From Candidatus Krumholzibacteriia bacterium (GTDB lineage: Bacteria; Krumholzibacteriota; Krumholzibacteriia; Krumholzibacteriales; Krumholzibacteriaceae), in NCBI GenBank assembly GCA_963770685.1, contig CAVYQN010000007.1:12170-76169 (forward strand): a DNA stretch of 64,000 nucleotides. The letters are read 5' to 3'. Under the pieces are notes generated by a model. The model was given only the letters and a program-made list of their open reading frames with translations, was not told the origin of the DNA and ran no database searches. The position numbers and the translations under genes are program-made. This document shows, one piece after another, positions 1-64,000 of the stretch. The stretch's first letter is position 1, and every line of letters starts with the position of its first letter.

Positions 1-888
1 GCGATCAGGACTATCAGCGCGAGCAGATAGAAACATCAGTATCTTTTCGACCTTTATGTAGCTGAAAAGGTTGCTGTTCAGGTCTATCCAGTTGTTCGTG
101 CCCCAGTAAGGCGACTGCAGGCGTTCCACTATCATCTCGTCGACAAGCTCCGCCTTGTATATGTCCCTTATCCTGATTCCAAGGCCCCTCGTCGAAGCCT
201 CGAAATCGTAGAAGGTCGCGGCCTCGCGGATGTCTATGTAGGCAAACCTCGAATCGAACTCGAAGACGCCGGTCTTGAAAAACCCTATGACCCTGAATTC
301 CCTCGTCCTCGGTTTTATCGTGCCGAGCTGCATCTCCGCCGGGGCGCTCACCAGGGTGAGTATCTCCCCGTACGATATCTTCAGATCGAGCGCGAGATCC
401 TCTCCGAGCACGATTCCGGGAAGATCCGCGCCGTCCTCGAATCCCGACGTCTCGAAGGTCGTCACCGGAGGCGAGAAGGAATCGATCACCGTCGAGACCA
501 TCTTCTCCTTCCCGATGTCGACGCCCTTGACGATCACGCCCTTGGTCTTGACCTTCAATCCCGATATGAACTCGTAGTACAGAAGCGACTCGCCCCTTAT
601 GAAGGGGGCCGTGGCCAGGACCCCGTCGACCTTCCCTATCTCGGCCGATATCGAATCGACCGCGTTCCACGCGGCCTCGTTCCTCGAGAATGCGAGCACA
701 TGCGTGTTGAACTCGATTATCCGGCTTCGAAGCTCCGCCTCGAAGCCGTTCATCAGGGAAAGGACGATTATCAGGGTCGCGACGCCGACGAGCGTCCCGC
801 CGACGGCTATCAGCGTCACGCGCGAAACCAGGCCGCTTCTGCGCCTGGCGCGAAGGTATCTCAGCGCGATTGCCAGGGAATAGTGCAT
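1..888 (-). CDS. lolE: Lipoprotein-releasing ABC transporter permease, LolC/LolE (FtsX/MacB-type) family; C-terminal part lies beyond the window edge
   Basis: Absent from the ORF track because the frame is open to nt 1. My minus-strand translation from ATG 888-886 reads MHYSLAIALRYLRARRRSGLVSRVTLIAVGGTLVGVATLIIVLSLMNGFEAELRSRIIEFNTHVLAF...NNWIDLNSNLFSYIKVEKILMF. This is a typical LolC/E N-terminus, TM1 and periplasmic domain. I checked every triplet of this frame over 1-888 and found no stop. The last 12 codons turn polar (LSARADSPDR) while the +1 frame reads LLALIVLIA, the expected TM2. A 1-nt insertion near nt 27 is therefore probable. Confidence 0.85.
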   Translation of the reverse strand, partial: MHYSLAIALRYLRARRRSGLVSRVTLIAVGGTLVGVATLIIVLSLMNGFEAELRSRIIEFNTHVLAFSRNEAAWNAVDSISAEIGKVDGVLATAPFIRGESLLYYEFISGLKVKTKGVIVKGVDIGKEKMVSTVIDSFSPPVTTFETSGFEDGADLPGIVLGEDLALDLKISYGEILTLVSAPAEMQLGTIKPRTREFRVIGFFKTGVFEFDSRFAYIDIREAATFYDFEASTRGLGIRIRDIYKAELVDEMIVERLQSPYWGTNNWIDLNSNLFSYIKVEKILMFLSARADSPDR

Positions 889-892
889 CCGC

Positions 893-2390
893 CTAATCTT
901 CCTCCCTGCCCTGCTCGGATCGCATCTGCGGGAAAAGTATGACGTCTCGTATCGACGGCGAATCGGTGAGCAGCATCACCATCCTGTCGATACCGACTCC
1001 GAGCCCCCCGGTCGGTGGCATCCCGTGCTCGAGAGCCCTGAGATAATCCTCGTCGACCGGGTGCGTCTCGTCGGCCCCCTGCTCGCGCGCCCTGACCTGC
1101 GCTTCGAACCTCTCGCGCTGGTCGATCGGATCGTTGAGCTCGCTGAAGGCGTTCGCCACCTCGAATCCCGCTATGTAAGGCTCGAATCTCTCGACCAGCC
1201 CCTTCTCGCTCCTGTGCACCTTGGCGAGCGGAGACAGCTCGACCGGATAATCCGTTATGAAGACCGGCTGGATCAGCCCGGGCTCGACCAGATTTGAGAA
1301 AAGCTCGTCGAGGAGGCCGGCGCGGCCCGAGACCCCTTCGATGTCGATATCGTGCTTCTTCGCGACGGCGGCCAGTTCCCCGACTTCCGCGTTCCTGAGA
1401 TCGGCGCCCGTCTTTTCCTCGAGCGACCCGAAAAATGTCAGCCTTCGCCATGGAGAGGCCAGGCTCAGCTTCTGACCCTGGTACGATATCTCCGTCGTGC
1501 CGAGCGCCTTTTCGCAGGCCCTGGCGTACATTCCCTCGACGAAATCCATCATGTCGTTGTAATCCCAGTACGCGGCGTAGCACTCGAGCATCGTGAATTC
1601 CGGGTTGTGCGACCTGTCCATCCCCTCGTTCCTGAAATCCTTGGAGAACTCGAAGACCCGCTCCATCCCCCCCACGATCAGCCGTTTGAGGTAGAGCTCG
1701 TCGGCTATCCTCAGATACAGGGTCATGTCGAGGGCGTTGTGGTGGGTCACGAACGGCCTCGCCATCGCCCCTCCGTAAAGAGGCTGGAGAATCGGGGTCT
1801 CCACCTCGAGGAACCCGTGCTCCCTCAGATAGTCCCTGACGGTGTCGATGATCATCGAGCGCGTCGTGAATACCTTCATCACCTCGTCGTTCACGATGAG
1901 GTCGAGATACCTTCTTCTGTACCGGAGCTCCTTGTCCTGCAACCCGTGGTATTTCTCGGGAAGGGGCAGGATCGATTTGCTGAGAAGCTCGAGCCTGCGC
2001 ACCTTGATCGTGAGCTCCCCGGTTTTCGTCATGAAAAACGCCCCGTGTATTCCGACGATGTCGCCGAGGTCGATCAATTTGAAAAGGGACCATGTCTTTT
2101 CGTCGACGTCCGCGTCCTTTATGTAGAACTGAATGGCCGAGGTGCCGTCCTTGATGTTACCGAACGAAGTGTGGCCGTGCCCCCTGAGAGACATCACCCT
2201 TCCCGCCAGCGCGATCTCCGTCCCGTTCTCCAGAAGACCTTCGGCCTTGTCCCTGGCGTCGCTGATGCTGTGCGTCCTGTCGAAACGGTACGGATACGGG
2301 TTGATCCCGATCTCGCGCAGTTTCGAGAGCTTTCTCCATCCTGGTATCCCTCTCGCGGCCGCCCTCTTTCGTGATCTCCTGTTCGCTCAA
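893..2390 (-). CDS. lysS: Lysine--tRNA ligase (class II LysRS), frameshifted near the 5' end in this assembly
   Basis: ORF 893..2197 (434 aa) is the LysRS body (FMTKTGELTIKV, YLRIADELYLKRLIVGG, NPEFTMLE, GLGVGIDRMVMLL). The same frame continues upstream as GIPGWRKLSKLREIGINPYPYRFDRTHSISDARDKAEGLLENGTEIALAGRV but has no start codon. TTG 2390, with AGGAAG upstream, opens ORF 2157..2390 (MSEQEITKEGGRE). Joining the two needs a +1 shift around 2340-2360 (CCC run 2348-2350). 1498 nt minus 1 gives 499 codons. The prfB-lysS order matches E. coli. Confidence 0.9.
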
Positions 2391-2391
2391 T

Positions 2392-3512
2392 TCAGTTCTT
2401 CCTTTCTTTCCACCTCAGGTAACCTTCTATGAATTCGTCGATCCCCCCGTCCATCACCCCCGGGATATTCCCCGTCTGGACGTCCGTCCGGTGATCCTTG
2501 ACCAGGGTGTACGGATGAAATATGTAGCTTCTGATCTGGTTTCCCCAGGATATGTCCTTTTTCTCGCCCGCGATCTTCGAGCGCCGTTCGTCCTCCTCCT
2601 CGAGTCGTTTCGCGTAGATTCTCGACCTGAGGACCTTCATCGCCATTTCGCGGTTCCTGTGCTGCGAGCGCTCGTTCTGGCACTGAACGACGATCCCGGT
2701 CGGGAAATGCGTCAGCCTGATCGCCGAATCGGTCTTGTTCACGTGCTGCCCGCCGGCGCCGCTCGCCCTGTAGGTATCCACCCTGATGTCATCCGGGTTT
2801 ATCTCCACGTCTATGTTGTCCTCGATCTCGGGGAAGATGAAAACGGACGCGAAGGAGGTATGCCTGCGGTGGTTCGCGTCGAACGGCGATATCCTGACCA
2901 GCCTGTGGATCCCGCCCTCCGATTTCAGCCTGCCGTACGCCATCTCGCCCTTTGATTTCGATCGTCGCGTTCTTTATCCCCGCCTCGTCTCCGGGCTGCA
3001 GATCGAGAAGCCTGTGCTTGTAACCGTTTCTTTCGAGATACCTCGTATATAACCGCAGGAGCATCTCCGCCCAGTCCTGCGACTCGGTGCCCCCGGCCCC
3101 GGGGTGAATATTCATCAGGGCGTTCCCGCGATCGTGCTCGCCCGACAGAAGAACGTCGAGCTCGAAGAGCCCGATCGCCTTCTTTATCTTTTCCAGTTCC
3201 GGGATCATCGCGTCGACGAGCGAATCGTCCCCTTCGCCCTCGTTCAGCTCCAACAGCTCGCGAAGCGACGCCAGATCGTTTTTCAGCGAATTATAGGGGG
3301 CGATCCTGTTCTTGAGCGATTTCAAGGTCGTAACAAGTTTTTCCGCCGATTCGCGGTCGTTCCAGAAATCCGGAGAAGACATCTTCTCCTCGATGGCGGC
3401 TGATTCGGCTTTCATTTTTTCGAGGTCAAAGATACTCCTTCAGGCTGTCGAGTCTTTCCTCGAGATCCCCCGCCGCCGAATCTATCTCTTTCGTGGATAT
3501 TCTCTCATTCAT
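2392..3512 (-). CDS. prfB: Peptide chain release factor 2, with the canonical programmed +1 frameshift plus one additional unexpected frameshift
   Basis: Three frame segments. (1) 3512-3429: [28 protein letters not shown], then TGA. (2) ORF 2789..3415 frame: [24 protein letters not shown]...[56 protein letters not shown]. (3) ORF 2392..2943: [22 protein letters not shown]...[42 protein letters not shown]. The SPF and GGQ motifs identify RF2. The second junction (coding AAA GGG C GAG; plus-strand CCC 2948-2950) is an extra base. 1121 nt minus 2 gives 373 codons. Confidence 0.93.
3425..3440 (-). promoter_or_regulatory. Programmed +1 ribosomal frameshift site of prfB (autoregulatory)
   Basis: The coding strand reads AAG GAG TAT CTT TGA C. 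A Shine-Dalgarno-like AAGGAG lies 3 nt upstream of the slippery CTT, which is followed by an in-frame TGA and then C. The E. coli site is AGG GGG TAT CTT TGA C. The +1 frame continues GAC CTC GAA AAA ATG AAA into the RF2 body. Confidence 0.9.
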
Positions 3513-4132
3513 GATCGTCCTTCCGTGAAACGCCCCGGCTCTTCAGGAATCCGTCGCGGATCTCCGCTGCTTTCTTCCTCACGGACCCGAGGCCGGCCGA
3601 TGTGTCCAGGGTAATATCGGCCTTTTCCCATCCCTTGTAAAGGGGCCTTTGCGTTTCGACGCGCGCCCTCGCTTCGGCGGCGGAGATGCCGTCCCTTTTG
3701 GCGAGCCTTTCGGCCCTTATATTCTCTGCGGCCTTCGTCTGCACGGAAAGGTCCGCCCTGAACACGAACTTATACTGGAAATACAGGACCGCATCAAGCA
3801 CTATGTACCGTTTCCGCTTGCCCTTTTGCCTGATGATCCCGCTGATCGTCCTTTTGACGTGCGGTTTAACGATCCTCTCGAGCCTCGCGAGGGCACGGGG
3901 ATCGCCGAACACGGCCCTTCCGAGTCTCTTCCTCGAAATCCTCCCGCCGGGGGTCAACACGCCGGCGAATTCCGACCCCACCTTTTCCCTGATACGAGGA
4001 TCCCCGTAAACCGATGCGCGCTATCGCGTCGGCGTCGAGCAGGCACCCGCCCGCCTCGGCCATCACCCGCGCCACCGTCGTCTTCCCGGAGGCTATCCCT
4101 CCGGTCACCACGATCAGCGGGCATCCCATCAA
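3505..4132 (-). CDS. coaE: Dephospho-CoA kinase, frameshifted in this assembly
   Basis: ORF 3866..4132 starts MMGCPLIVVTGGIASGKTTVARVMAEAGGCLLDADAIA (P-loop). The body lies in the ORF 3505..3981 frame (ASVYGDPRIREKVGSEFAGVLTPGGRISRKRLGRAVFGDPRALARLERIVKPHV...). The junction needs a +1 shift near 4017-4021. 628 nt minus 1 gives 209 codons. The start overlaps the polA stop, and the stop overlaps the prfB start (ATGAATGA). Confidence 0.85.
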
Positions 4133-6835
4133 TGCGCCTCCATCCAGTTCTTCCCCGTGCCTATTTCGACTTTCAGCGGCACGGCCAGCATGATCGCCGA
4201 TTCCATCTTCGTCCTCACCAGCTCCTTCAGGCGTTCCACCTCACCGGGCACGGCGTCGAAAACCAGCTCGTCGTGCACCTGCAGGATCATTCTGCTTTCG
4301 AGCCCCAGCCTTCCCATCTCGGCGTGTATCTCGATCATCGCGACCTTTATCAGATCGGCGGCGGTTCCCTGAATCGGTGTGTTCACCGCTATCCTCTCCG
4401 AGAAACTCCTGAAGCCGCCATTGGCGCTGTTTATGTCGGGGAGCGGCCGCCTTCGCCCGAGCAGCGTCTCGGAATAGCCGTTTTTCCTCGCGAAGTCCTT
4501 CGCCGTCTCAATGAATTCCCCGATGCCGGGATATTTCCCGAAATATTCGTCGATGAATCTCTTCGCTTCCTCGAATGGGATCCTGAGCTGCTGCGACAAG
4601 GCCCTCGGTCCCTGCCCGTAGATCACGCCGAAGTTTATCGTCTTGGCCGCGGACCTCATCTCCTTCGAAACGTCCTTCTCTTCCACGCCGTATATCCTCG
4701 AGGCGGTGCACGTGTGTATGTCGGCATCCTCGTTGAAGGCCTTTATCAGCTCCGGATCCCTCGAGAGATGGGCCATGATCCTGAGCTCCACCTGGGAATA
4801 ATCCGCGTCGAGTAGAAGGTTGCCCTCGGCCGGAATGAACGCGCTCCGGATCTGCCGCCCAAGCTCGGTCCGTATCGGGATGTTCTGAAGGTTCGGCTCG
4901 CTCGACGAGAGCCTTCCGGTCGTGGTCACGCTCTGATTGAAGGATGTGTGTATCCTTCCCGTTTTGCCGTTTATCAGGCGCGGGAGGTTGTCGACGTAGG
5001 TGCTCGCCATCTTGGCGAGCTGCCTGTACTCGAGGAGCAGCCCGGCGAGGGGATGCTGAGCGGCCAGCTCGGTAAGCACGTCGACGTCGGTCGAGAATCC
5101 GGTCTTCGTCTTCCTGCCGGAGGGCAGGCCGAGCTTTTCGAACATTATGGCCTGAAGCTGCCGGTTCGAGTTGATGTTGAATTCCTCGCCGGCCGCCTCG
5201 TAAATCCTCGCCGTCAGCCGTTCCATCTCCTCCGAGATGGTCGTCGACAATTCCTTCAGCCTCCCGGCGTCCAGCCCCATTCCCGCCATTTCCATGCTCT
5301 TCAGCACGAGAAGGAGAGGCCTCTCCACGTGATCGAAAAGCCCGGCGAGCCCATCCCCTGCGAGCTTCTCGGCGAAGATTTTCTTCAATCTCAGGGTATA
5401 GTCGGCGTCCTCGCACGAATATTCGCAGAGGCGTTCGGGGGAGACGGTCCTTATGTCCCTCGTCCTGTCCCCCTTCTCGAACAGCTCCCCGTAGGCTATC
5501 ATCCTGTGCTTCAGGAACTCCATCGCGAGGTTGTCGAGCGAGTGCGACCTTCTCGACGGATCGATCACGTACGATGCGATCATGGTGTCCCATGTGCCGT
5601 TTTCCACGGTGAATCCGTGGGATTCGAGGACCTTGAGGTCATATTTTATATTGTGGCCGGCCTTGCATATTTCCGGGTCGGCGAGCACCGGCCCGAGCGT
5701 TTCCCTCAGCGAATCGAGGTCCGCCCACTTCCCGGGCGCGGCCTCTCCGGCGAAGAGCCCGCTGCCGTCTTCCACGGCGGCGGCGACAGGGACGTACCAT
5801 GCGCGGCCTTCGGAGACGCAGAAGCTGATCCCGACCAGTTCGGCCTCCAGCGAATCGAGGGAGGTGGTTTCCACGTCCAGGACGAAATCTCCCGCCTCTC
5901 TGAGCGCGGCCGCCAGATCCTTCAGGCCGTCCCTGCCGACCAGCATGTATCCTGAATTTCCCCTGATCCTCGAACCCAGCCCGAGCTCCTTGATTATCTG
6001 GTGGAATTCCATCTCCAGAAGCATCTCGGTCAGTTTCGTTTCGTCCTGCCCGCGCCGCACGAGGCTGTCATAGCTGAATTCCATCGGCACCGAGGCGAGT
6101 TTCACCAGTTCCCTCGAGAAAAGCGCGTCCTCTTTTCCTTCGGCTATCTTCCTGCCGACGTGGGCCGGCTTTATGCTTTCGGCGTTCTCGATGACCTTGT
6201 CGAGCGTCCCGTATTCCTGCAGAAGTTTCAACGCCGTTTTCTCGCCGATCCCCTTTATCCCCGTTATGTTGTCGGAGCTGTCCCCCATCATGGCGAGCAG
6301 ATCGACGATCTGCGCCGGCGAGAGCCCGAACCGATTCCTCGAGATATTCCGGCCCGATTTCGTTCTCCAGGTCGTTCCCCTTCGACGGCCTTATCATTCG
6401 AACGCGGTCTCCGAGAAGCTGAAAGAGATCCTTGTCGCTCGAGACGATCCTCACGTCGAAACCCTCTCCGGCCGCCTTCAGCGCGATCGTCGCTATGATG
6501 TCGTCCGCCTCGTACCCGGGCGCGGCAAGGACGGGCAGCCCCATCGCCTCCAGCACATCCTTTATTATCGGGATCTGCGGGCGCATGTCGTCCGGCATCG
6601 CCACCCTGTTCGCCTTGTACTGTTCGTATTGCTGATGCCTCCCCGTCTCCTCCTCGGAGTCGAAGACGACGACGAGGCGGTCCGGGGCGTATTTCTCCAT
6701 CAGCCGCAGGATGACGCGGATAAAGCCGTACACGGCGCTCGTGTTCTCCCCGCGGGAGTTCGTCAGCGGATTCCTTATGAAGGCGTAGTAGGATCTGTAG
6801 GCTATGGCGTGGCCGTCAACGAGAAAAATTGTCAC
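4129..6835 (-). CDS. polA: DNA polymerase I, frameshifted in this assembly
   Basis: ORF 6068..6835 gives the 5'-3' exonuclease domain (MTIFLVDGHAIAYRSYYAF, YEADDIIATIA, IVSSDKDLFQLL, NEIGPEYLEE). The ORF 4129..6291 frame gives FGLSPAQIVDLLAMMGDSSDNITGIKGIGEKTALKLL and the polymerase domain (DYSQVELRIMAHLS, RSAAKTINFGVIYG, QVHDELVF). The frames join by a +1 shift at about 6331 (coding GAA TCG G TTC GGG). 2707 nt minus 1 gives 902 codons. Confidence 0.93.
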
Positions 6836-8253: not shown

Positions 8254-9117
8254 GCTTTGCGATCCTTTCCTTGGCCATTTCGACCAGCCTTCCGCTGGAT
8301 CCGAGGTTCATGTGGACCACCCTGGAATAATAATCGACGGCACTGTCCGTCTCATTCCTTGATTCGAATATCTCGGCGAGAAGAAAATTGACCTTTTCCC
8401 TGACGAGAGGATTCCCCGCCGAATCGGCCAGCTCCAGGAGCAGGGCCTGGGCCTTCTCGATTTCCCCGCCCGAGTAAAGCTCCGTGCCGGCGTTGAGCAG
8501 AAGATTCTCCAGTTTCCATTCGACGGTGGACATCAGCCGGCTTCCTGGGTACCTGTCCTGGAAACGCCTGTAAAGCTCTATTGCATGAAGCTTGTCCCCC
8601 TTCCCCTCGTAAGCCGAGCCGAGTTGTATCATGACCTCCGCCGCTCCGGCCGTATCGGGGTGAGCCTGGAGGTATCTTTTGAAATACCGTATCGCGCCGT
8701 CGAAATCCCTGCCTTCCAGAAATATCCCCCCCGCGACCGGGTTATAAGGCCCGAAATCGGTGTCCGGCCCGAATTCGGCGGTTTTCAGGATGAATCTCTT
8801 TCCCCTGGCCTCCTGCCCGGTTTCGAGGTTTTCAAGTGCTTCAGCGCGGTAGAGCCCCGCGATCCGCTGCGCCCACGACGAATCGATCGCGCATATCTCA
8901 GCGAAGGAGTCGGCGGCCTCGGCTTCGCTGCCCAGCTTGAGAAGCGCCCTTCCGACGATGAAGAGAAGCTCCGGATCCTTCTCCCCCCCTTCTTGAAATG
9001 GTGGCGGGCGAGAAAGACCGATTCCGCGTAATTACCCTTAGAAAATTCCCCGCTGACCTTTTCCAGGATCGATTTCTGTTCGCAGGAGACCGTGGACATC
9101 AAGCCGGCGGCAAGCAT
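8228..9117 (-). CDS. TPR-repeat lipoprotein, frameshifted at a homopolymer in this assembly
   Basis: ORF 8785..9117 reads MLAAGLMSTVSCEQKSILEKVSGEFSKGNYAESVFLARHHFKKGG. The reading then continues in the ORF 8228..8632 frame as EKDPELLFIVGRALLKLGSEAEAADSFAEICAIDSSWAQRIAGLYRAEALENLETGQEARGKRF...MIQLGSAYEGKG.... The junction lies in a C7 run (8983-8989; coding G7), and one missing G (-1) restores the frame. 890 nt plus 1 gives 297 codons. A further T7 run at 9116-9125 may hide a second shift that would extend the N-terminus to ATG 9172. Confidence 0.7.
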
Positions 9118-46482: not shown

Positions 46483-47738
46483 TCAATTCATCCCGAGGCA
46501 CCGCTCGACCTTCGCCTCTATCGTGAAAGGGACCCCTTCGCGTTCGAGCACGAGGGTCCTGATCTCGCCCGGCACGCCCCGGAGCGCGTCGACGACCGCG
46601 CCCATCGTGGCCCCGTTCACCTGACAGATCGCCGACGCGAAGAAGCAGGTCGCCGCGGCTCGACACCCTCGACGAGCGGTTTCCCGTCCTTCACGGCGAC
46701 TCCAAGCACCTCGTAACCTCCATCTTCGAGCGGCCGCAGGGCAAGCCCCACGAGGTCCATGTCGAATCCCCCGGGCCGTGCGCCCCGCTCGAAATATACG
46801 GCCCCGTTCAGCGTAGTCGATTTCCACCCTGAAATCGATGAACGCGTTGGGCCCGAGGAATCCCGCCACCGGGCGCGCCGATTTCATGGAGTAGATCCGG
46901 CCGAGGGTGTACCCGTTCGGGAAGACGTCGGTCACTCCGACGATACCGACCCCGGTCAGGCTCACCGATCCGATCGCGACCTCCGGCAGGCGGAAAAGGG
47001 GAAGCGTCTCCTCCTCGGCGGCCACCATCCCCACATGTTCGCGCAACCTGTCGTGCCCGTGAGGCGCGGCATCCCAGGATGGCGCGCGAAGAGGCGCTCG
47101 AGGGGGCCGGCGTCGGCGAAGGAGTAGGACGCGCCGTTGTCCAGCGCGAAACTCAGGCTGTCCCCGTCGATCACCGCGTCGACCTGAACGATGCCGGTCT
47201 CCGCGATGAACATGCGCCCGGACCATCGTGCCGCGCGGTTCGATGGCGCCGGGCCGGGCTATCGTGAGGCGTTTTTCGGGGTAGTCGAAGACGACATGGT
47301 TCTTCATGAGAACAGTGGAAGGCAGGTTGGCGTCGTTGTGCGTCGCGCTGAAAAGCCAGAACGGCTGTGTCATGACGACCGCTTTCACGCCCGTGAAGTC
47401 GATCGTCATTCCTCCTATGCGGACGCCCGCCGGCGCCGGCACCTCGAAGGCCCCACCTTCGGGGCTCCCCGGTTCCCGCCTTCAGCCCCGGGGAATTCGA
47501 TCCCCAGGTCCCTGGCGAGCGGCTCGCTGATAAAGAACGTCGGATTCCCCGTGTCCACCCAGAGAAGCGCCTTCCTCCAGCTGCCGTCGGCCCGCTGTAT
47601 CTCGGCTTCCACGAGCATCCTGTTGTGGTCGAGGGTGAACGGAACCGTGACGCTGTCCATCCCGGCCTTCCGGCACCCTGCCATCGAGAGCAACACGAAT
47701 ACTGCAAAAGCGATCGGGCAGGCGTATCCTTTTTTCAT
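46483..47738 (-). pseudogene. Retropepsin-like aspartic protease + PDZ domain lipoprotein, carrying about 6 frameshifts
   Basis: Segments stitched across three frames. First, MKKGYACPIAFAVFVLLSMAGC...LLWVDTGNPTFFISEPLARDLGIEFPGAEGGNRGAP. Then EGGAFEVPAPAGVRIGGMTIDFTGVKAVVMTQPFWLF...EPRGTMVRA. Then MFIAETGIVQVDAVIDGDSLSFALDNGASYSF...GCANMWGWWPP. Then EEETLPLFRLPEVAIGSVSLTGVGIVGVTDV...VEIDYA. Then NGAVYFERGARPGGFDMDLVGLALRPLEDGGYEVLGVAVKDGKPLVEGVEP. Then GDLLLRVGDL. Finally QVNGATMGAVVDALRGVPGEIRTLVLEREGVPFTIEAKV. Junctions are at about 47460 (-1), 47214 (+1), 47017 (-1), 46808 (+1), 46655 (+1) and 46624 (+1). 1256 nt minus 2 net gives 418 codons. Confidence 0.7.
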
Positions 47739-47980: not shown

Positions 47981-48809
47981 TTATTCCTCGCGGAGCTTCT
48001 TGAGCGATCCCCAGGACGCGGGCTCTTCGGCGGCGGAATTCAATGCCGCCCCGACGTCCCCCGTCGCCATGATGTCGTCCGAATCCTCTTCGCACGGAAG
48101 CTCGTTGTAGGCGCAAAGCGCGTCCTTTATCTCCTCGCCCTCTTCCTTCGCCTCGCCCTTCGGGCGGCTGAACAGCGGATAGATCATAAGGAAGGCGTCC
48201 GCGGCGTCGATGTAGCCGTTGATGCCGTCGTCCGCGCCGTTCAGAACGTTCAGTTTCGCGGCGATCAGGTGGTGCGCGAGGATGACCGTCGCGTCACCGT
48301 GAACCGGCGTGTCGAGGATGACCATAAGCTCGATCCATCGAATACGTGACGCCGCCGAGGGTGAGACTGCTTACCGGCCAGGCTTCCGGATGATTCTTCC
48401 AGTAACCCGGGGTATAGGTGCATCCGCCCGGCTCATCGCAGTCGCAGGTGAAGCTGGTCGTGTAGTAGCGGTTGCCCCATCCTTCGTTGCTGGCGAAGTG
48501 AAGGTGCATGTTGACCGTGTAGTCACCGCACAGTTCCATGTCCCATATGCCGTTGTAATCGAAAGTCGGCCCGGACGGGTAGAGGACGTCGTTACCGGTG
48601 AAGGTGTAAACGGTCGTGGTGCCGGAAAGAAGGGTGACCGTGTAGTCGACGTTCACGTAAGCCGCCGTTCCGAAGTAGAAATGACCGGTGTACGACCAGC
48701 CCGCGCAATCGGCCGTGCAGACCAGCTCGTCGGGATGGGTGGCCCAGGCGCCGGAGGTGAATACTGCAAGAACGAGAAGCATGGCCAATGTATGAATCGC
48801 ATATTTCAT
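47981..48809 (-). CDS. Secreted hypothetical protein with a Cys-rich N-domain and GYWKNH motif, frameshifted in this assembly
   Basis: The start is M29 of ORF 48294..48893 (MKYAIHTLAMLLVLAVFTSGAWA). The body runs through CTYTPGYWKNHPEAWPVSSLTLGGVTYSMD. The ORF 47981..48325 frame continues ELMVILDTPVHGDATVILAHHLIAAKLNVLNG... and ends EEPASWGSLKKLREE. The +1 junction is at about 48322-48335. 829 nt minus 1 gives 276 codons. Confidence 0.6.
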
Positions 48810-50201: not shown

Positions 50202-50206
50202 CCCGG

Positions 50207-51164
50207 TCAACGTTTGATTCTGTTCTCGGCCCTCTGCTTCTTGTCGATGGCGCGCACGAGAAGGACCCATGTCGCCCATCCCAGAAGGACCATCCCCAGG
50301 GAGAAGAGCGAGTACGAGATCTTCCATCCGACGTTTTTCGTGACCGCGCTGAACTCCGACATGCCGCCGATGCTGGCGATCAGGTTCAGACGGGAGGAAG
50401 ATGATGTTGATCAGCGTGAGGTTCTTGAGAAGGACGTTCACGTTGTTGTTCACGATCGTGCCGCGAGCGTCCATAAGCCCGGAAAGAACGGTGGTGAAGA
50501 TCTGGGCCTGCTTGGCGCACTGGAAATTATCCAGGATGATGTCGTCGAGCATCTCGGTCTGCTCCTTCGTCAGCCCGAGTTTCTCCGCGGAGGCGCGCAC
50601 CTTGGCGAGGGTGCTGCCGTTGGCCTCGATGGCGTTCAGATAGTAGATGAGCGCTTCTCCGAGGGCGAACATCTGGAGCAGGTACCGGTTCTCCATCGAC
50701 GTGCTGATCTTGGATTCGAGATCGACGGTGAGCTGCTTTATGGCTTTGAGATGGTCGAGGTAATGATGCACGGTGTGCAGGAAGAATTTGAGCAGCACGT
50801 CGACCGTCGAACTGACCCCCTGAAATTCCTTGGCCGAGAACGGGATGCCGCTCTCGCTCATGATCACGTGAAGCATGCCTCGGTTGTAGAAAAGCCCCGC
50901 CGAGGTAACGTCCAGCCTCAGGCGCTGGTCGACCGAGAGGTTTTTCGGCCTCTTCCAGATGACATAAACGCCCTCGCGGTAGAACTGAACGCGCGAGATC
51001 TCGTCGGGATCGAGCGCCGATTCGATGTCGTGGGGATCGAGCCCTATCACGTCCGCTATCTCGCGCTTCTCCTCCTCCCCGGGAGCCACGTACACGTTCA
51101 CGTCGATCCGCCCGCCGGCGGATGGGATGATCGAACCGTCAACAAGTTCAAAGGTGCTTTTCAT
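50207..51164 (-). CDS. corA: CorA-family divalent cation transporter, frameshifted near the 3' end in this assembly
   Basis: The start is M132 of ORF 49968..51557 (51164), after GGGGGGAGGAAG. The cytoplasmic domain and stalk run through LLKNLTLINIIFLP. The +1 frame continues LNLIASIGGMSEFSAVTKNVGWKISYSLFSLGMVLLGWATWVLLVRAIDKKQRAENRIKR and stops at TGA 50209-50207, giving TM1, a loop motif and TM2. The junction is at about 50390 (coding CCG T CTG AAC). 958 nt minus 1 gives 319 codons. The tracked ORF tail overlapping the peptidase gene is spurious. Confidence 0.8.
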
Positions 51165-51575: not shown

Positions 51576-52576
51576 TTGGACGTTTTAGAACAGGGAGCCG
51601 GGGAGTTGTTTACCGATCCCGATCCCGACAGGGCCAGGGAGTTTTTCCACTCCAAATCGCGGAAGATGGTGAAGCAAGCTGATGCCCCTGAAGGAAGCGA
51701 TCGAAAGGTTCGTAAAGGACGGCGAGTACCTGGCGATAGGAGGGTTCGGGGCGAACAGGGCGCCGATCGCCGCGTGCCACGAGATAGTCCGCCAGGGGAG
51801 AAGGAATATGGGCTTCGCCGGCCACACATCCACCCACGATTTCCAGATCCTCGCGGCCGGAGAGGTCTTCGACAGATGCGACGTGGCCTATATAATAGGC
51901 CTCGAAGCGAGGGGGCTCTCGCCGGTCGCGCGCAGATACATGCAAAGCGGCAGGGTCAGGGTCACCGAATGGAGCAATTACAGCCTCGCCGCGAGGCTCA
52001 AGGCGGCCACGATGGGCGTGCCGTTCGTCCCGACGAGGACCATCATGGGAACGGACACCTTCACGCACAGCGCCGCGAAGATCGTGGAATGCCCGTTCAC
52101 GGGCACGAAGGTCGTGCTTCAACCCGCGCTTTATCCCGACGTCTCCGTGATCCACGTCCATGAGGCGGACATCTACGGCAACTGCCGCATCAGGGGGATC
52201 ATGATCGCCGACGACGATCTCGCCAGGGCGAGCAGGAAACTTATCATAACGTGCGAGAGGCTCGATCCCGAACGACGAGATCAGGCGCGATCCGACCGCC
52301 ACGAGGATACCCTACTTCCTCGTCGACGCCGTGTGCGAAACCCCGTACGGCGCCTATCCGGGGAATATGGCGTACGAGTATTTCTCCGACGAAGAGCATC
52401 TGAAGGAATGGCTGGCGGCCGAGGAGGACGCGGAGACATTCAAAGGCTTCATGCAAAAGTACATTTACGGCTGCAGGGACCATTACGAATACATCGGGCT
52501 CAACGGCGGCCTTCAGAGGATGATCGAACTGCGCAGGAAAGAGCTTATGATCCACAAAGAGGTGGCCAATGGCTGA
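51576..52576 (+). CDS. CoA-transferase subunit A (glutaconate CoA-transferase GctA-like, family I), with two frameshifts in this assembly
   Basis: TTG 51576, 5 nt after GGGAGG, opens MDVLEQGAGELFTDPDPDRAREFFHSKSRKMV. A +1 shift at about 51678 leads into ORF 51682..52596 (LMPLKEAIERFVKDGEYLAIGGFG...VIHVHEADIYGNCRIRG...LIITCERL). A second +1 shift at about 52264 leads into the ORF 52331..52576 frame (IPNDEIRRDPTATRIPYFLVDAVCETPYGAYPGNMAYEY...). 1001 nt minus 2 gives 333 codons. The N-terminal extension is less certain than the second junction. Confidence 0.8.
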
Positions 52577-53340
52577 TTACAACACGATGGAACTGATGAT
52601 ATGCGTGGCCTCCCGCGAGCTCGAGGACGGCGCGACGGCGGGCGTCGGCACCGGGGCGCCCTGCGCGACGGCGATGCTCGCGCAGAAAACGCATTCGCCC
52701 AACCTGGTCATCATGTTCGAAGCGGGCGGCGTAAGCCCCATTCTTCCCGAGATGCCCATTTCGGTCGGGAGATTCGCGCACCTTTTACAGGGCGGTGATG
52801 GCGTCCGGGATGTGCGATATAATGGAGACGTGCTGCCGCGGATTCGTGGACTACACCTTTCTCGGCGGCGCGCAGATCGACATGTACGGCAACCTCAATT
52901 CCACGAGGATCGGGGGCGACAGCAGGAAGCCGAAGGTGAGGCTGCCCGGGTCGGGAGGGGCGAACGACTTCGCCTCGTTCTGCTGGAAGACGATGGTCAT
53001 GACGGTCCAGGACACGAGGCGTTTCGTCGAGAAGGTCGATTTCCTGACGACCCCCGGGTGGATCAGGGGCGGGAATTCCAGATACGAAGCGGGCCTGCCC
53101 CTGGGGACGGGCCCCTACAGGATAATCACCAACATGGCCGTGATGGATTTCGAGCCGGGCAGCAGGCGCATGAGGATCATGTCGATAAACCCGGGCTATT
53201 CGCTGAAGGACGTGCAGGACAATTGCGGATTCGAGCTTAAACAGGCGCCGAAGATCACGGAGACCATGGCGCCCACGGCGCACGAGCTCACGATCCTTCG
53301 AGAAGAGGTCGATCCGTACCGGTACATAATCGGAAGGTAA
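52569..53340 (+). CDS. CoA-transferase subunit B (GctB-like), frameshifted in this assembly
   Basis: ORF 52569..53240 is good through MFEAGGVSPILPEMPISVG. The ORF 52795..53340 frame continues DSRTFYRAVMASGMCDIMETCCRGFVDYTFLGGAQIDMYGNLNST...LPGSGGANDFA.... The +1 junction is at about 52770. The start ATG overlaps the subunit A stop. 772 nt minus 1 gives 257 codons. Confidence 0.82.
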
Positions 53341-56344: not shown

Positions 56345-56371
56345 GGCCGGCTCCGTTCGGCCCCGCCTTTT

Positions 56372-57600
56372 TCAGAACGCCGTCGACGCTCCCGCCGTGA
56401 AACTGTAGTCCTCGCGCTCGGCCTCGTACGTCGCCTCGGCGAGCAGGCGGAGATTCCTCCGGAGAAGATAGCCGAATCCGGCGGTCATCGACCGGTGGTT
56501 CAGCCCCTCGTAATCCGACTCTATGAAATTATAGAGAAGCGTGACGAACGGCCGCCCCATCTCTCCGCGCACAAGCCAGACGAGCTCGGCGAGCCCGCCT
56601 GTCGTTTTTATCTCGTCGGCGGGTTTTGCCGCGAGGAAGTCCGGGTTCTCGTCGTAACGCTCGAGGTACTGCGCGTTGAGCTGGACCCTGTCCCTGAAAT
56701 CGACCGTGCCGTCTACCCCCCAGTAATAGTGCCGGTTGTCGATCGGGTTTACCGGAATACCGTGGAGTCCGGATTGCTCATCCTCGTGTTGCAGAGGTAT
56801 CCGAAACCGCCGAGCCTGACCGGCCCGGCCTGCTGCGACACCCTGAGGAAGGTGTTCTTCCATTCGTCGGCGTCGAAGAAACCGGTTTCCCCCTTTTCCC
56901 CGATGCCGTTGCCGTTCACGACCTGAAGAACGATGTCGGTCCCCGTCGGGAGGCCGTACAGGAACATCAGCCCCCTGTCGTAGGCAAGATTCGTCGGGGA
57001 TGCGCCCACCCTCGTCTTGTATATGAGATAGTCCTCGTAAGTCAGGCGCAACTCCCTCTTGAAAAGGGGATCGGAGACCTGGAACTGCCCGGCCAGGATG
57101 TCCAGCTCCGTGCCGAAAAGGTTGTTGAAGTGAATATAGGCGTCCTCCACGCCGGCCACCTCGCCCTGCTCCGACATGTAGAAATAGAAATAATAGCCGA
57201 CGGAGCTCGAGATGTTCCCTCCCGAAAGGATCTTTATCCCGAAGGGGGTCTTCAAATCGTTCATGCCGCCCCTCTCTTCGTGGTAGGTGCCCTGCATGTA
57301 GGCGTCGAACCTGACGGCGATCGGGTAATCACGCTGGAGGGTCAGGAGATCGTCTCCCGTGTCGTGGAAGGCGCGCGACGGCTCCTCGCCGTCGGGAAGC
57401 TGAAAGGCGTTTCCCGCAAAGTCTTCGCCGTACGCCTTGAGCCTCGGGGCCGGGGCGTGGCAGGTCGTGCACGAAAATTTGTATTTCCTCGCAAAGGCGG
57501 GGATGGCGTTCGAGACGGCCGGCAGAAGCGCCAGGAGGAAAGCGGCCAGAAAGGGCGCCATCACTAGAATCTTCGTTCGACTTTTCTTAAGCGTCATCAT
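56372..57600 (-). CDS. Monohaem cytochrome c fused to an outer-membrane beta-barrel (Cyc2-like cytochrome-porin candidate), frameshifted in this assembly
   Basis: ORF 56749..57600 has a signal peptide (MMTLKKSRTKILVMAPFLAAFLLALLPAVSNA), then IPAFARKYKFSCTTCH (a single CXXCH), then strand-like sequence through PVRLGGFGY. The ORF 56372..56863 frame continues ...GLHGIPVNPIDNRHYYWGVDGTVDF... and ends YSFTAGASTAF (terminal Phe). The -1 junction lies somewhere in 56765-56815. 1229 nt plus 1 gives 410 codons. Confidence 0.65.
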
Positions 57601-57687
57601 CTGCTACCTCCATCGGTATCGGAATCCCGTTCTTCGCATACATCCCTTTCATCCACGACGCCCGGCGCCGGAGGCCGCCAGGCCCGG

Positions 57688-59056
57688 TCAGTCCACGACC
57701 TCGAACCAGGTCTCGGCGTCGTTGACCTTCACGATCTCCGTCTCGTCCGCCGGGACCTTGAGCAGCTCGGCGACCGACGCGACGAGCCTTCGATAGTTAA
57801 GCGCCGCCCTGACGATCACCCTTCCGGGGGCGATGTCGTCGGGAAGGGCCCACGTGTACGTCTCGATCTTCGTTTCCCTCGGGCCTATCCTGTAATCGGT
57901 CCCGAGCGACGCCGTGTTCCACTGGGCTATCGTTCGCCGCCCCTCCTTGTCGAAATAAGGGAGGCAGAAGATCCTGTCCCCCTCGGGAAGGGCGTCCCTG
58001 GGTATGCCTGCGAATGACGGCTCGCCGCGCATGAAACCGATATCCTGGTAGGCAAGGATGTTGCTCGTTATCGTCTCGTCCTCCCCGTCGAAACCCTTCC
58101 TGTCGACCGGGAGGTGAAACTCCCTCCCCTCGGAATCGACGGCCGTGACGCGAAGCCAGAGCTGCCTCTCCTCGGCCGATCCGGACGGGACCTTGTGGCC
58201 GCACTTCCCGTTGAAAAGCTGAACCTTTATCACGGCGCGGTCGCCGGGCTCGAGCTCGCGCTCCTCCGGATGCATCCTCATCTCGATCGATCCGCCCACC
58301 TTGCCCGGATCATGGGCGCCGTGGAAGAGATGCTGTGCGACGTCGGGATGCTCCTTCCTCGCCGTGTTGGCGTTCCTGCCCGGCGCCTTCGGCATATGGC
58401 AGGCGTGGCACTGGACCCCCTGCGCGTTGTACGGCCCCTCGGCCCATTCGAGCTCGGTCGATTTGACCCAGATCCCGTACGGGTTCATCTCGTTGTGGCA
58501 GATTCCGCAATAGGGGGCGGTGCTGACGAAATCGTTTTTCGCCGTCTCGTGGTGCGGCGAAACGACCCCCTCGCGGTTCGCGTATTTCACGCGTCCGGGC
58601 GAATGCACGTAGTTGAAGTTCACGGAAGGGTCGCCCAGTCCTCGCCGTGATCGTATGGCAGATGTCGCAGGAGACGCTCTCGTTCGCCCTCGAGCCAGCC
58701 TCGGGGCGCGGCGGTGTTCTGGTCCCCGTGATCCACATCAGCGGCGTGTGGCAGCCGTTGCACCCTGCGACCGCGTCCGCAAGCGCCGGATCACGCTTGA
58801 CGTGCTCGAGCGCGAGATCGAAATACTCTATCTCGTCCCAGTGGTGAACGTAGGCCTGCGACATCATCGACTGGCTCCACTGCTCGTAGATGTCGATGTG
58901 GCACTGGCGGCAGGTCTGGGGGCGCTCGAAATCGCCCTCCTTGAAGGCGCCGAAGGGCGCGCTTCCCCCCTCCCCGCCCACCGCCGGGTTTACCGTCGGG
59001 GTCAAAAGAACGAGGAAAACGGCCTGGATGGCAGATACGGCAAAGCATCTTTTCAT
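57688..59056 (-). CDS. Secreted pentahaem c-type cytochrome, frameshifted in this assembly
   Basis: The start is M9 of ORF 58310..59080 (MKRCFAVSAIQAVFLVLLTPTVNPA). Five CXXCH motifs are present: CRQCH, CNGCH and CDICH in ORF 58310..59080, and CGICH and CHACH in ORF 57688..58623. The +1 junction lies within 58625-58655, between CDICHTIT and DPSVNFNYVHSPG. 1369 nt minus 1 gives 456 codons. Confidence 0.8.
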
Positions 59057-59203
59057 CTCTTCCACCTCTCGGGTCCGCATTGTCCTTTATTCCGATGATC
59101 GATTGATAAGAGGAGTTATATCAGAAAATGACAATATTCAATAGAAAATTTAGTCCGCATCGAACCCTCGCGACAAGGTCGGCCGCGATTCATTTAAAAT
59201 GCT

Positions 59204-59233
59204 TTGTCTTCCAGGCGCCGATTATCCTATAAT
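59204..59233 (+). promoter_or_regulatory. Sigma-70-like promoter candidate
   Basis: TTGTCT (59204-59209), an 18-nt spacer and a perfect TATAAT (59228-59233), about 95 nt upstream of ATG 59329. This is motif match only. Confidence 0.4.
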
Positions 59234-59328
59234 GCTCTCCATCGCAATCATTCATTTCTCCCGGCAGGCATCTTTTCAGGATACTTCGGCATTGCCGGTT
59301 GAAGAACGCTTTTCCGAGGGAGGACGAC

Positions 59329-59745
59329 ATGAGGAGAATAATTTCAGTTTCAGCGTTGATCGCGATTCTGGCCGCCGGAGCGGTCTGCACGGCGAAGGCG
59401 CAGGGATACGCAACGGAGGGGGCGGGCCTGACGATAGGAAGGCTGGTCATCGCCGCGGGCATCGAAGACAGGGAGCCGGTCGGCGTTGCGGACAGGTTCT
59501 CTTCTGACACCGCCACCGTCTATTGCTTCCTGGAGGCGAACAATATCGCCGCGGATATCGAGGTTGCCTTCGTCTGGATCCTCAATGGGACGGAGATACT
59601 TGAAACCCCGATGGCGCTCAAGGCGGCCCCGCGATGGAGAACCTGGGCAGCCAAGAATTTGTACGGTCTCGAGGGCGACTGGAAGGTCGAGCTGCGGGAC
59701 GCGTCGGGCACCGTCCTTCGAACCGTGGAGTTCAAGGTCGAATAG
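59329..59745 (+). CDS. Small secreted protein (DUF2914-like C-terminal domain, tentative)
   Basis: ORF 59299..59745, with the start at M11 after GGGAGG. It has a signal peptide (MRRIISVSALIAILAAGAVCTAKA) and a C-terminal pattern RWRTWAAKNLYGLEGDWKVELRDASGTVLRTVEFKV. Confidence 0.55.
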   Translation: MRRIISVSALIAILAAGAVCTAKAQGYATEGAGLTIGRLVIAAGIEDREPVGVADRFSSDTATVYCFLEANNIAADIEVAFVWILNGTEILETPMALKAAPRWRTWAAKNLYGLEGDWKVELRDASGTVLRTVEFKVE

Positions 59746-59787
59746 CCGGACGGCGCCCGATGCCTGTAATCCCGCTGTCTCAAGCCG

Positions 59788-61911: not shown

Positions 61912-62121
61912 CGAACCGCCTCCGGGAAATGGGGTTGCAGGAAACAAGGACGCAAATCCCGGGAATAATCGCAGAGAATGCTTCGCCTTGTCAATCTACC
62001 CCTTTCCACGGGGCGGCGATTGTCATTGTGCGGCGGCCCTCTTTCTGCTGGAATATCCTTTGTCCCCGGCCGGAAAGAAGCGGATCGTGTCCGACCTCCT
62101 GAATTAACGAAAGGGGTTGCG

Positions 62122-62685
62122 ATGGATGTAAGGACGGCCATAGAGAAACGAAGGGCCTACCGGGCCCTCGAGGGTTCGAGGTAACCGATGATATCGTCGC
62201 GGAGCTCGCCGAGGCGGCGCGGCTGACGGCGTCATGCTTCAACAATCAACCGTGGCGCTTCGTCTTCGTCACCGGGCCCGGACGCCCTCGGCAGGATGCA
62301 CGAAGCCCTAAGCCGCGGGAACGAATGGGCGCGAAAGGCGTCGATGATCATCGCGGCCTTCGGGACAAAGGATGACGACTGCCTTATAAGGGAAAGGGAA
62401 TATTATCTTTTCGACATCGGCATGGCGGTGTCGGCGATCGTTCTGCGCGCGACGGAGATGGGCCTGGTGGCCCACCCGATAGCGGGCTACAGCCCGGCAA
62501 AAGCCAGGGAGATACTCGGGATACCGGAAGACAGGATGCTTATCACCCTCGTCATCGTCGGGAAAAAATCCGAAAGCCTCGAGGGGCTCAGCGACGCCCA
62601 GAAGGATGCGGAAAAGGAAAGGCCGGCAAGGCGCGACCCGGCCGCCATTCATAGCATCGACAGGTACGATCCGAGGCTCGGCTAG
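62122..62685 (+). pseudogene. Nitroreductase-family protein with a -1/+1 frameshift pair
   Basis: ATG 62122 opens MDVRTAIEKRRAYRALE, and then TAA at 62182 appears in that frame. The middle segment, in another frame, reads FEVTDDIVAELAEAARLTASCFNNQPWRFVFVTGP. The reading then returns to the first frame (ORF 62296..62685): DALGRMHEALSRGNEWARKASMIIAAF...GLVAHPIAGY.... The junctions are at about 62172 (-1) and about 62278 (+1). 564 nt gives 188 codons. Confidence 0.7.
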
Positions 62686-62694
62686 GGCGAGAAT

Positions 62695-62752: not shown

Positions 62753-62766
62753 GAAATGCCCCCTAC

Positions 62767-62794: not shown

Positions 62795-62800
62795 ATTTTC

Positions 62801-62829
62801 TTGAATATCTGAAATCCCCGATATATCAT
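62801..62829 (+). promoter_or_regulatory. Sigma-70-like promoter candidate for the HTH-PBP regulator gene
   Basis: TTGAAT (62801-62806), a 17-nt spacer and TATCAT (62824-62829), about 75 nt upstream of ATG 62905, which has an AAGGAG/GGAGG RBS. This is motif match only. Confidence 0.35.
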
Positions 62830-62904
62830 ACACCCCGAACTGATTGCGGTCGATGAGCCGTTACCGCATTAATTGCACGCATAATAAGGAGTTGGAGGTT
62901 CAGC

Positions 62905-63804
62905 ATGACCGAGGAGCTTTTTTCCGTCAAGGAAGTGGCAACCTACCTGAATCTCAACGAAAAGAAGATCTACTCCCTCGATAAAAAGAGGGGATATTCC
63001 CTGCACGAAGATCACCGGCAAATGGCTCTTCCCGAAAAACCGGATAGACGAATGGATCGAGATGAGCGTCGGCCACGATTTCAGGGCCGATTCTCCGGGA
63101 AACATAAGGATCGCAGGGAGCAACGACCCGGCGCTGGAGCTTCTTGCTTCGTCGGTCAGGAAACTGTTTCCGCGCCTGACCGTCCTTGCGGCGAATGTCG
63201 GGAGCAGGCGCGGCCTGGCGATGCTTCAGAGAGGCGGAACGCACATATCGGGGATGCACATCTTCGATCCCGCCGACGAGCGAATACAACATCCCCTACC
63301 TCCAAAAGATGGCCCCTTCGCTGAGGCCCGTCGTGGTGAATTTCGCCTGGCGCGACCAGGGGATCCTGGTCGCCGCCGGCAATCCGCTCGGCATATCGGG
63401 CATCGAGGACCTGGCGCGACCGGAGGTCAGGTACATCAACCGGCAGCCGGGCGCCGGGAACGAGGCTTCTTCTCGACTATAACCTCAGGCGCCTCGATAT
63501 CGGCAGGGACAGGGTACGGGGTTACGACGATTACGTGAACACGCATTACGAGGTCGCCGCGGCGATACAGAGAGGGCGGGCCGACGCGGGTCTCGGCATC
63601 AGGGAGGCGGCGGCCGGTTTCGGCCTCGGATTCATCCCTGTGACGAGGGAGCGTTTCGACCTCGTCATACCGGGAAGGTTTTTTTACACGGAACCGATCC
63701 AGCAGTGCCTCGAGGTCACCAGGTCCGAAGCATTCAGGGAATCGGTCGGGCATCTCAACGGATACTACGCCGGCGATACTGGAACGGTGCTCTGTTGGGG
63801 ATAA
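62905..63804 (+). pseudogene. Excisionase/MerR-type HTH fused to a periplasmic-binding-protein-like (molybdate/tungstate-binding-like) domain; three +1 frameshifts
   Basis: Frame 1: MTEELFSVKEVATYLNLNEKKIYSLDK. Frame 2: RGDIPCTKITGKWLFPKNRIDEWIEMSVGHDF...NIRIAGSNDPALELLASSVRKLFP...GTHISGMHIFDPADE. Frame 3: EYNIPYLQKMAPSLRPVVVNFAWRDQGILVAAGNPLGISGIEDLARPEVRYINRQPGAG. Frame 1 again: TRLLLDYNLRRLDIGRDRVRGYDDYVNTHYEVAAAIQRGRADAGLGIREAAAGFGLGFIPVTRERFDLVIP.... The junctions are at about 62985 (A5 run), 63281 and 63460. 900 nt minus 3 gives 299 codons. Confidence 0.7.
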
Positions 63805-63823
63805 ATCAGAAAGGAAGAGGGTG

Positions 63824-64000
63824 ATGTTTTTTTTCGGAAGACAGAAAAGTAAATCAGCGGCTCTTACGATCCTGGCTCTCGTTTCGATGGCCATGTTTCT
63901 CTTCGGCTGCTCGGATGACGGCGTTGTAGATTCGACCGAGGTGGTATCGTCGAGGGCTTACCAGGGCCACGCCTCGGACGTCGACATCAACAACTTCGTG
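63824..64000 (+). CDS. Lipoprotein, N-terminal fragment (continues beyond the window end)
   Basis: Not in the ORF track because it is open to the window end. ATG 63824, after AAGGAAGAGGG, opens MFFFGRQKSKSAALTILALVSMAMFLFGCSDDGVVDSTEVVSSRAYQGHASDVDINNFV. This gives a signal peptide with lipobox LFGC and 59 in-frame codons without a stop. Confidence 0.6.
   Translation, partial: MFFFGRQKSKSAALTILALVSMAMFLFGCSDDGVVDSTEVVSSRAYQGHASDVDINNFV

Follow-up and report, generated by a model that had tools for sequence, protein, structure and literature searches.

Single-base frame breaks across a Krumholzibacteriota metagenome bin are very probably consensus errors, many resembling a retained second allele

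Conserved genes, including lysS, prfB and polA, are split by single-base frame breaks in the 64,000-nucleotide stretch of Candidatus Krumholzibacteriota DNA analysed here (the window), raising the question of whether the breaks belong to the organism or to its assembly. A preliminary description had counted about 29 of them, some 24 apparent insertions and 5 apparent deletions. We aligned the window, at both DNA and protein level, with two sister genomes of the same genus, G002 (93-94% nucleotide identity to the window) and G001 (~80%), whose DNA was rebuilt from translations in three frames, every stop being written as X, and verified letter for letter against a DNA alignment row. All 29 breaks are present in the deposited sequence, 0-20 bases from where they had been placed, and the split stands at 24 +1 events and 5 that are -1 or equivalent (Table 1). 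The comparison with sister orthologues that had been proposed as a check returned a single uninterrupted open reading frame in G002 or G001 at every break covered. The break near 48330 lies outside sister coverage and was confirmed by comparison with a less closely related homologue in genome G014, an intact protein of 278 amino acids. JGI contig L105, the single useful near relative from one metagenome scan (the other matches were distant PolA homologues), is 95.7% identical at the nucleotide level and lacks the insertion at 4014. An exact-protein look-up found no identical FabF protein in public assemblies.

The gene names originally assigned agree with Pfam wherever a family matched; nadD and the FadL-like, retropepsin-PDZ, GYWKNH and two cytochrome fragments gave no Pfam match. 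Where tested, Pfam domains are cut at the breaks, namely CoaE (profile 55-177 of 180), adh_short (97-192 of 195), ATP-grasp_2 (44-202 of 202) and PCRF (162-194 of 194). The six breaks described in the retropepsin-PDZ gene were all recovered by DNA and protein alignment to the sisters; two Arg-rich out-of-frame stretches of this gene stay open by chance.

Table 1 Frame breaks in the window and the programmed prfB site used as a positive control
Gene or site	Change	Position	Strand	Basis and bases at the site
lolE-like permease gene (MacB_PCD)	+1 insertion (G)	26	-	gap against G002; Pfam; window GA, G001 G where G002 has A
lysS	+1 insertion (C)	2330	-	sister ORFs intact
prfB	+1 insertion (G), not the natural recoding site	2954	-	PCRF domain cut here; window CTTTG, G002 CTTT, G001 TTTG
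prfB, genuine programmed site (positive control)	programmed +1 frameshift	3426..3432	-	reads AAGGAGTATCTTTGACC, SD-like element upstream
coaE	+1 insertion	4014..4015	-	sister and L105 alignment; window AT, G002 T, G001 and L105 A
polA	+1 insertion	6334..6340	-	exact base uncertain among clustered variant positions
nadD	+1 insertion (A)	7136	-	sister alignment
TPR lipoprotein gene	-1 deletion (8987)	8983..8989	-	sister alignment, Pfam; C run in window, G002 CCCCGCCC, G001 TCCTCC
DUF4837 gene	+1 insertion (G)	20377	-	sister alignment, Pfam
FadL-like porin gene	+1 insertion	26172	+	window TA, both sisters C
fabG	+1 insertion	30048	-	Pfam; window CG, G002 G, G001 C
sucC	+1 insertion (G)	36691	-	sister alignment, Pfam
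retropepsin-PDZ lipoprotein gene, 1 of 6	+1 insertion	46624	-	sister alignment
retropepsin-PDZ lipoprotein gene, 2 of 6	+1 insertion	46655	-	sister alignment
retropepsin-PDZ lipoprotein gene, 3 of 6	+1 insertion, closes an open out-of-frame stretch	46810	-	
retropepsin-PDZ lipoprotein gene, 4 of 6	-1 deletion	47015	-	sister alignment
retropepsin-PDZ lipoprotein gene, 5 of 6	+1 insertion	47204	-	sister alignment
retropepsin-PDZ lipoprotein gene, 6 of 6	frame switch, net -1 (~47455)	47448..47469	-	exact base uncertain, linker divergent
GYWKNH-motif protein gene	+1 frame break (~48335)	48325..48340	-	ab initio call at 48335; G014 homologue matches both fragments
corA	+1 insertion	50389..50390	-	Pfam; window GA, G002 A, G001 G
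CoA-transferase subunit A	+1 insertion	51671..51675	+	sister alignment, Pfam
CoA-transferase subunit A	+1 insertion	52265..52270	+	sister alignment
CoA-transferase subunit B	+1 insertion (C)	52766	+	sister alignment, Pfam
cytochrome/porin-like gene	frame switch +2, equivalent to -1 (~56756)	56743..56773	-	sister alignment
multihaem cytochrome gene	+1 insertion (58637)	58634..58637	-	G002 C, G001 G
nitroreductase gene	-1 deletion	62171..62176	+	sister alignment, Pfam
nitroreductase gene	+1 insertion (62277)	62273..62277	+	compensates the 62171 deletion ~105 nt upstream
regulator gene, 1 of 3	+1 insertion	62979	+	G001 is the only sister covering the site
regulator gene, 2 of 3	+1 insertion	63273	+	sister alignment, ab initio call
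regulator gene, 3 of 3	+1 insertion	63454	+	sister alignment, ab initio call

The breaks extend across the Candidatus Krumholzibacteriota bin that holds the window (G000; 1.54 Mb, 8 contigs, 71% complete). A frame-aware HMM made 372 calls in this bin (0.24 per kb; 273 skip-1 and 99 skip-2) against a background of 0.015-0.04 per kb in the sisters. Density was raised on 7 of the 8 contigs, to 5-15 times that background; contig C6 was nearly clean, at 0.04 calls per kb. Over 192 kb aligned to G002, clean events numbered 90 (+1) and 41 (-1), and 110 indels broke 62 of 167 genes (37%). The interruption of conserved genes at this scale, together with their intact state in relatives, points to breaks that very probably arose in the consensus of a metagenome-assembled genome built from long reads rather than as mutations of the organism. 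The preliminary description had likewise leaned towards consensus error from uncorrected long reads. Its artefact reading gained support; the insertions themselves, as set out below, look unlike random read noise and resemble a second allele.

Sequence context separates deletions from insertions. Deletions lie in homopolymers in 23 of 33 cases, with no third-position excess among the deleted bases by codon-position count. Insertions avoid homopolymers, only 27 of 71 extending any run against a null of 43.5%, and slippage in such runs, which does hold for deletions, was rejected as their main cause. In 44 of the 71 insertions (62%, against a null of 34%; p = 2e-6), the inserted base is one that could stand at a neighbouring codon position synonymously; 5 of 13 match the G001 allele at the adjacent site (null 9.3%, p = 0.005), four times the chance level. 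Several window sites carry both sister alleles side by side. Moreover, one 14-kb region occurs twice in the bin, as C1:1-13931 and C6:13945-1; the two versions are 93.4% identical, and their first 3 kb are ~99% identical yet 18 indels apart. The assembly contains at least two closely related populations, and the bin holds two haplotypes. The insertions thus look like a second allele kept beside the first at polymorphic sites.

Two classes of error stand out. The first, classical homopolymer contraction, covers most deletions. The second and larger, single-base insertions outside homopolymers, may arise where two closely related populations were assembled together and their reads differ by a SNP: noisy alignments would render the variant as an insertion plus a deletion, and the consensus caller would retain the inserted allele while the resident allele is not removed, so that both stand side by side and the frame moves by +1. 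Retention of a second allele at polymorphic sites would explain the insertion bias, the non-homopolymer context and the hot spots. We infer how the consensus came about, which sequencing platform was used and what role read depth played, and consider it somewhat probable that allele merging accounts for most insertions.

The main competitor, itself an artefact reading that differs only over this sub-mechanism, is plain random long-read noise from low coverage, with no strain variants involved and with hot spots marking local dips in coverage. Residual indels are known to be coverage-dependent (PMC9262707), breaks are enriched at contig ends and carry no sequence motif, and the allele model leaves 27 of the 71 insertions unexplained; these ~38% are incompatible with a synonymous alternative allele, and some may therefore be plain noise. 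Such noise predicts neither the excess of synonymous-compatible insertions nor the matches to the outgroup allele, and as the general cause it appears possible but rather unlikely.

The uneven spread of the breaks had been reported as exceeding chance, and this holds. At 0.45 breaks per kb, the probability of none in 11 kb is ~0.007 and that of at least 6 in 1.26 kb, as in one of the two hot spots singled out earlier, is ~3e-5. The two stretches described as break-free are so: between 8987 and 20377, a span that includes 9.2-20.2 kb, alignment to G002 shows a single gap, of 3 bp and in frame, at 12944, and gaps within 36.8-45.6 kb either fall between genes or at their boundaries or leave the frame unchanged overall. 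Frame-break calls are overdispersed genome-wide (dispersion index 2.0 in 5-kb bins, p = 1e-22), terminal 5-kb segments of contigs carry 0.45 calls per kb, about twice the interior density of 0.23 per kb (p = 2e-4), and density remains high from the right end of the window through the end of contig C7. Overdispersion, the contig-end excess and the nearly clean C6 are proxies through which a dependence on depth or assembly may show. Unevenness is no argument for biology; it characterises the errors throughout the genome. We rejected GC content as a driver of hot spots, its effect being weak (rho = 0.14). Divergence from G002, used to stand in for strain variability, was rejected too, as indel density correlates with it weakly (rho = 0.23, p = 0.04). 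Under the allele-merging account, clustering would follow from a requirement for local strain divergence, for low or uneven depth, or for both; errors would gather in the variable accessory genes and near contig ends, and stretches dominated by one population would be free of them.

Real lesions, whether in a decaying lineage or as true pseudogenes and indel polymorphisms underlying the clusters in the retropepsin-PDZ, regulator, CoA-transferase and nitroreductase accessory genes, are very unlikely. The densest clusters do fall in non-essential genes, within a part of the window for which the G002 assembly is fragmented, and the nonsynonymous-to-synonymous ratio is slightly higher in broken than in unbroken genes (0.45 versus 0.38; odds ratio 1.17, p = 5e-4). 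However, the same type of lesion occurs in lysS, prfB, polA, coaE and nadD, where breaks are lethal if real; none has a second copy in the 71%-complete bin, and the sole locus of each is broken. Only 2 new in-frame stops accompany the 110 indels in the 62 broken genes, and purifying selection on these genes is near-normal, close to that on intact genes. Even the six-hit retropepsin-PDZ gene is as conserved against G001 in its in-frame segments as other genes are. The allele-like signature of the insertions and the climb in density towards contig ends likewise count against real lesions. A mixed picture, in which a minority of clustered breaks are real segregating indel polymorphisms or recent pseudogenes and the rest consensus errors, is similarly improbable; the six retropepsin-PDZ breaks and the three in the HTH regulator could be candidates for such a minority.

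Systematic base-calling errors at a methylation motif have a slighter chance still: several window insertions create CGAT, GATATC or CTCGAG, yet no 3- to 5-mer is enriched at the 90 genome-wide insertion sites after multiple-testing correction, which bears out the earlier claim of no shared motif and led us to drop a methylation or sequence-motif cause.

For recoding, the window offers an internal control in the programmed +1 frameshift of prfB, which resembles the 29 breaks in shifting the frame by +1 within an essential gene whose sequence is conserved on either side. The programmed site differs in having a canonical CTT TGA C motif with an upstream SD-like element, and it is conserved in G002 and G001 as well as in G000, whereas 0 of the 29 breaks are shared by any relative covering them. 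Restoration of frames by programmed ribosomal frameshifting, transcriptional slippage or quadruplet decoding, to which the conserved flanks at every break and the organism's use of one such site lend some appeal, is extremely unlikely given no shared slippery or stimulatory motif, insertions that do not sit in the A/T runs relevant to slippage, and shifts that are both +1 and -1, some compensating within 100-190 nt.

Frameshifts from long-read consensus indels are an established, coverage-dependent problem, and those of nanopore and PacBio CLR assemblies are the targets of IDEEL-type tests and of proovframe (PMC9262707; bioRxiv 10.1101/2021.08.23.457338). G000 resembles such assemblies in that single-base indels split conserved genes genome-wide, essential ones included, while relatives stay intact, and in a depressed completeness (71%); its errors may also vary with read depth or with the assembly. 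Insertions outnumber deletions ~2:1, fall mostly outside homopolymers and have an alternative-allele look, unlike the textbook nanopore pattern; the typical nanopore consensus error is a homopolymer deletion. The 93% identical region pair, side-by-side sister alleles and clustered errors recall the collapsed-haplotype artefacts of strain mixtures; the step from SNP to retained insertion is one we infer for G000. Pseudogene-rich decaying genomes, such as those of recently host-restricted bacteria, offer a parallel in the 37% of genes interrupted by frameshifts, but G000 departs from them in its near lack of nonsense mutations, in selection that is not relaxed, in hits to indispensable genes without a second copy in the bin and in lesions that depend on contig position.

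In aggregate, the frame breaks are almost certainly not a real biological feature, and the value of identifying them is practical rather than biological. A synonymous alternative base standing beside the resident base may serve as a read-free diagnostic of a strain-merged consensus, and the true prfB frameshift site in the window supplies a clean positive control. G000 stands for its species in a reference taxonomy with ~37% of its genes split, and its use as a basis for gene calls, completeness estimates (71%), pseudogene counts or claims of recoding or decay would give wrong results. Consensus errors also need to be kept in view when weighing further oddities described from this genome.

Alignment of the window to the DNA of two same-genus sister genomes, G002 and G001, together with tblastn of sister ORFs against it, recovered every one of the ~29 frame breaks listed in the preliminary description, 0–20 bases from the positions first assigned, and confirmed their bias towards apparent insertions (table). 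The window spans positions 12170–76169 of contig C7 in the source bin, G000 (8 contigs, 1.54 Mb, 71% complete), whose same-genus relatives are by label Candidatus Krumholzibacteriia or Krumholzibacteriota MAGs. G002 (JALOPX01; 93–94% nucleotide identity) covers window positions 1–955, 1545–41642, 49835–52793 and 55721–62689, and G001 (JBFYZH01; ~80%) covers nearly the whole window. Sister DNA was reconstructed exactly from three-frame translations, with stops as X, and was identical letter for letter to an independent DNA alignment row. At 41.6–49.8 kb and 52.8–55.7 kb the short-read G002 assembly is split into contigs or has no sequence, and G001 is collinear; these gaps fit a strain-variable accessory region. 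The short-read JGI contig L105 (Ga0066601_10051106; 95.7% identity) has its own 2-bp deletion in polA at 4916–4917 relative to the window and G002, so public short contigs are also not error-free.

Single-base frame breaks in the window, with the bases read at selected sites
Position	Apparent change	Window	G002	G001	L105
26	insertion	GA	A	G	
2330	insertion				
2954	insertion	CTTTG	CTTT	TTTG	
4014	insertion	AT	T	A	A
6334–6340	insertion				
7136	insertion				
8987	deletion or equivalent				
20377	insertion				
26172	insertion				
30048	insertion	CG	G	C	
36691	insertion				
46624	insertion				
46655	insertion				
46810	insertion				
47015	deletion or equivalent				
47204	insertion				
~47455	deletion or equivalent				
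~48335	insertion				
50389	insertion	GA	A	G	
51671–51675	insertion				
52265	insertion				
52766	insertion				
~56756	deletion or equivalent				
58637	insertion				
62171	deletion or equivalent				
62277	insertion				
62979	insertion				
63273	insertion				
63454	insertion				
Totals: 24 apparent insertions, 5 apparent deletions or equivalents

Every sister genome covering a given break carries a single uninterrupted ORF there, and none of the 29 breaks is shared by any covering sister; several sites lie within a single sister's coverage (36691, those clustered at 46.6–47.5 kb and the breaks in the regulator). No sister aligns at the ~48330 break, where an intact, more distant 278-amino-acid homologue in G014 matches one frame over residues 1–159 and the other over residues 161–278. 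Protein alignment to G001 showed that the six breaks claimed in the 1.26-kb retropepsin-PDZ gene are genuine, its well-conserved blocks being interrupted by two Arg-rich nonsense segments left open by chance. Pfam backed the gene names wherever a family matched, and its domains were truncated at the breaks.

Essential genes are not spared: lysS, prfB, polA, coaE and nadD are each present in G000 as a single, broken locus. A frame-aware Viterbi model trained on the bin's own long ORFs, which recovered about two thirds of the known window sites without relatives, made 372 calls in 1.54 Mb (273 skip-1 and 99 skip-2), with call density raised on 7 of 8 contigs; on the sisters its rate was 1 call per 55–69 kb, or 17 across 412 kb of G002. 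The total for G000 is put at roughly 550–600 frame breaks. Defining features of programmed frameshifting, transcriptional slippage and methylation-motif errors were each tested for and did not appear; nor did those of genome decay. Decay would be expected to add nonsense mutations and relax selection, whereas an indel-specific error process would not. Across 192 kb from seven contigs aligned to G002, 62 of 167 genes hold 110 frame-breaking indels, yet with indels ignored the broken genes have just 2 new in-frame stops, and their nonsynonymous/synonymous ratio is 0.45 versus 0.38 in unbroken genes, which favours the assembly as the source.

The uneven spacing of the breaks is also real and extends beyond the window. 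The break-free stretches described earlier hold up as well: in the 11-kb one, flanked by the breaks at 8987 and 20377, the sole gap relative to G002 is an in-frame 3-bp difference (GCT) at 12944, within the gene for a 715-amino-acid protein. Genome-wide, calls in 5-kb bins were overdispersed (dispersion index 2.0, p = 1e-22); the longest run with no break reached 53 kb, and some bins held 6–8 calls; GC content explained little of the density (rho = 0.14). Density was 0.45/kb within 5 kb of contig ends, against 0.23/kb in the interior (p = 2e-4). On contig C7 it stays raised from the hot spot at the right of the window through to the contig end, where the last 4 kb (76170–80341) contain five further ab initio breaks; that hot spot thus belongs to a broader increase approaching the end. 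Contig C6 (47.6 kb) has only 0.04 breaks/kb versus 0.18–0.38/kb on the other contigs, and may derive from a better-covered population. Between the corA and CoA-transferase genes (51178–51510), about ten small indels relative to both sisters reflect either rapid evolution of non-coding DNA or additional errors.

Consensus indels that cause frameshifts in a coverage-dependent manner are well documented in long-read assemblies (PMC9262707; bioRxiv 10.1101/2021.08.23.457338), and G000 fits that kind. Its deletions behave as classical long-read errors, 23 of 33 lying in homopolymers. Less usual is the surplus of insertions outside homopolymers, a trait we attribute to strain merging. Only 27 of 71 insertions extend a run, versus 43.5% expected, and no k-mer is enriched around them, in keeping with the lack of a shared slippery motif reported previously. 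Judged from sequence, the inserted base looks like a second allele. In 5 of 13 cases it matches the allele by which G001 differs at a directly neighbouring site (null 9.3%, p = 0.005), and genome-wide 44 of 71 inserted bases would be a synonymous choice for an adjacent codon position (null 34%, p = 2e-6).

Related populations are demonstrably mixed in the bin. C1:1–13931 and C6:13945–1 are two versions of one 14-kb region (93.4% identity), the first 3 kb ~99% identical but 18 indels apart and the remainder differing by 30–119 substitutions/kb, a pattern that points to two related populations and a junction left unresolved by the assembly. Elsewhere on C1 (155955–159688), a tandem array of ~303-bp units with 81–88% mutual identity probably encodes a repetitive surface protein. 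At a SNP that separates the reads of two co-assembled variants, the consensus could retain both bases and so gain an insertion. Such allele merging, a mechanism suggested by these base patterns, is somewhat favoured as the origin of most insertions, and would explain why insertions predominate, why they lie mostly outside homopolymers, and why hot spots occur in variable accessory genes and close to contig breaks.

Five lines thus point to the assembly, supporting the original reading as consensus error: sole essential loci that are broken, a genome-wide excess, few stops, the contig-end rise and the contrast with a conserved site in prfB. That site, AAGGAGTATCTTTGACC (3426–3432, reverse strand), absent from the preliminary list, is conserved at every base in G002 (C95:40002) and G001; its CTT TGA C is preceded by AAGGAG at a distance of three bases, and a stop follows a 28-residue reading. 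The frame breaks are almost certainly an assembly artefact and no biological feature of this bacterium; the prfB site is a genuine +1 programmed frameshift, the only real case of recoding in the window.
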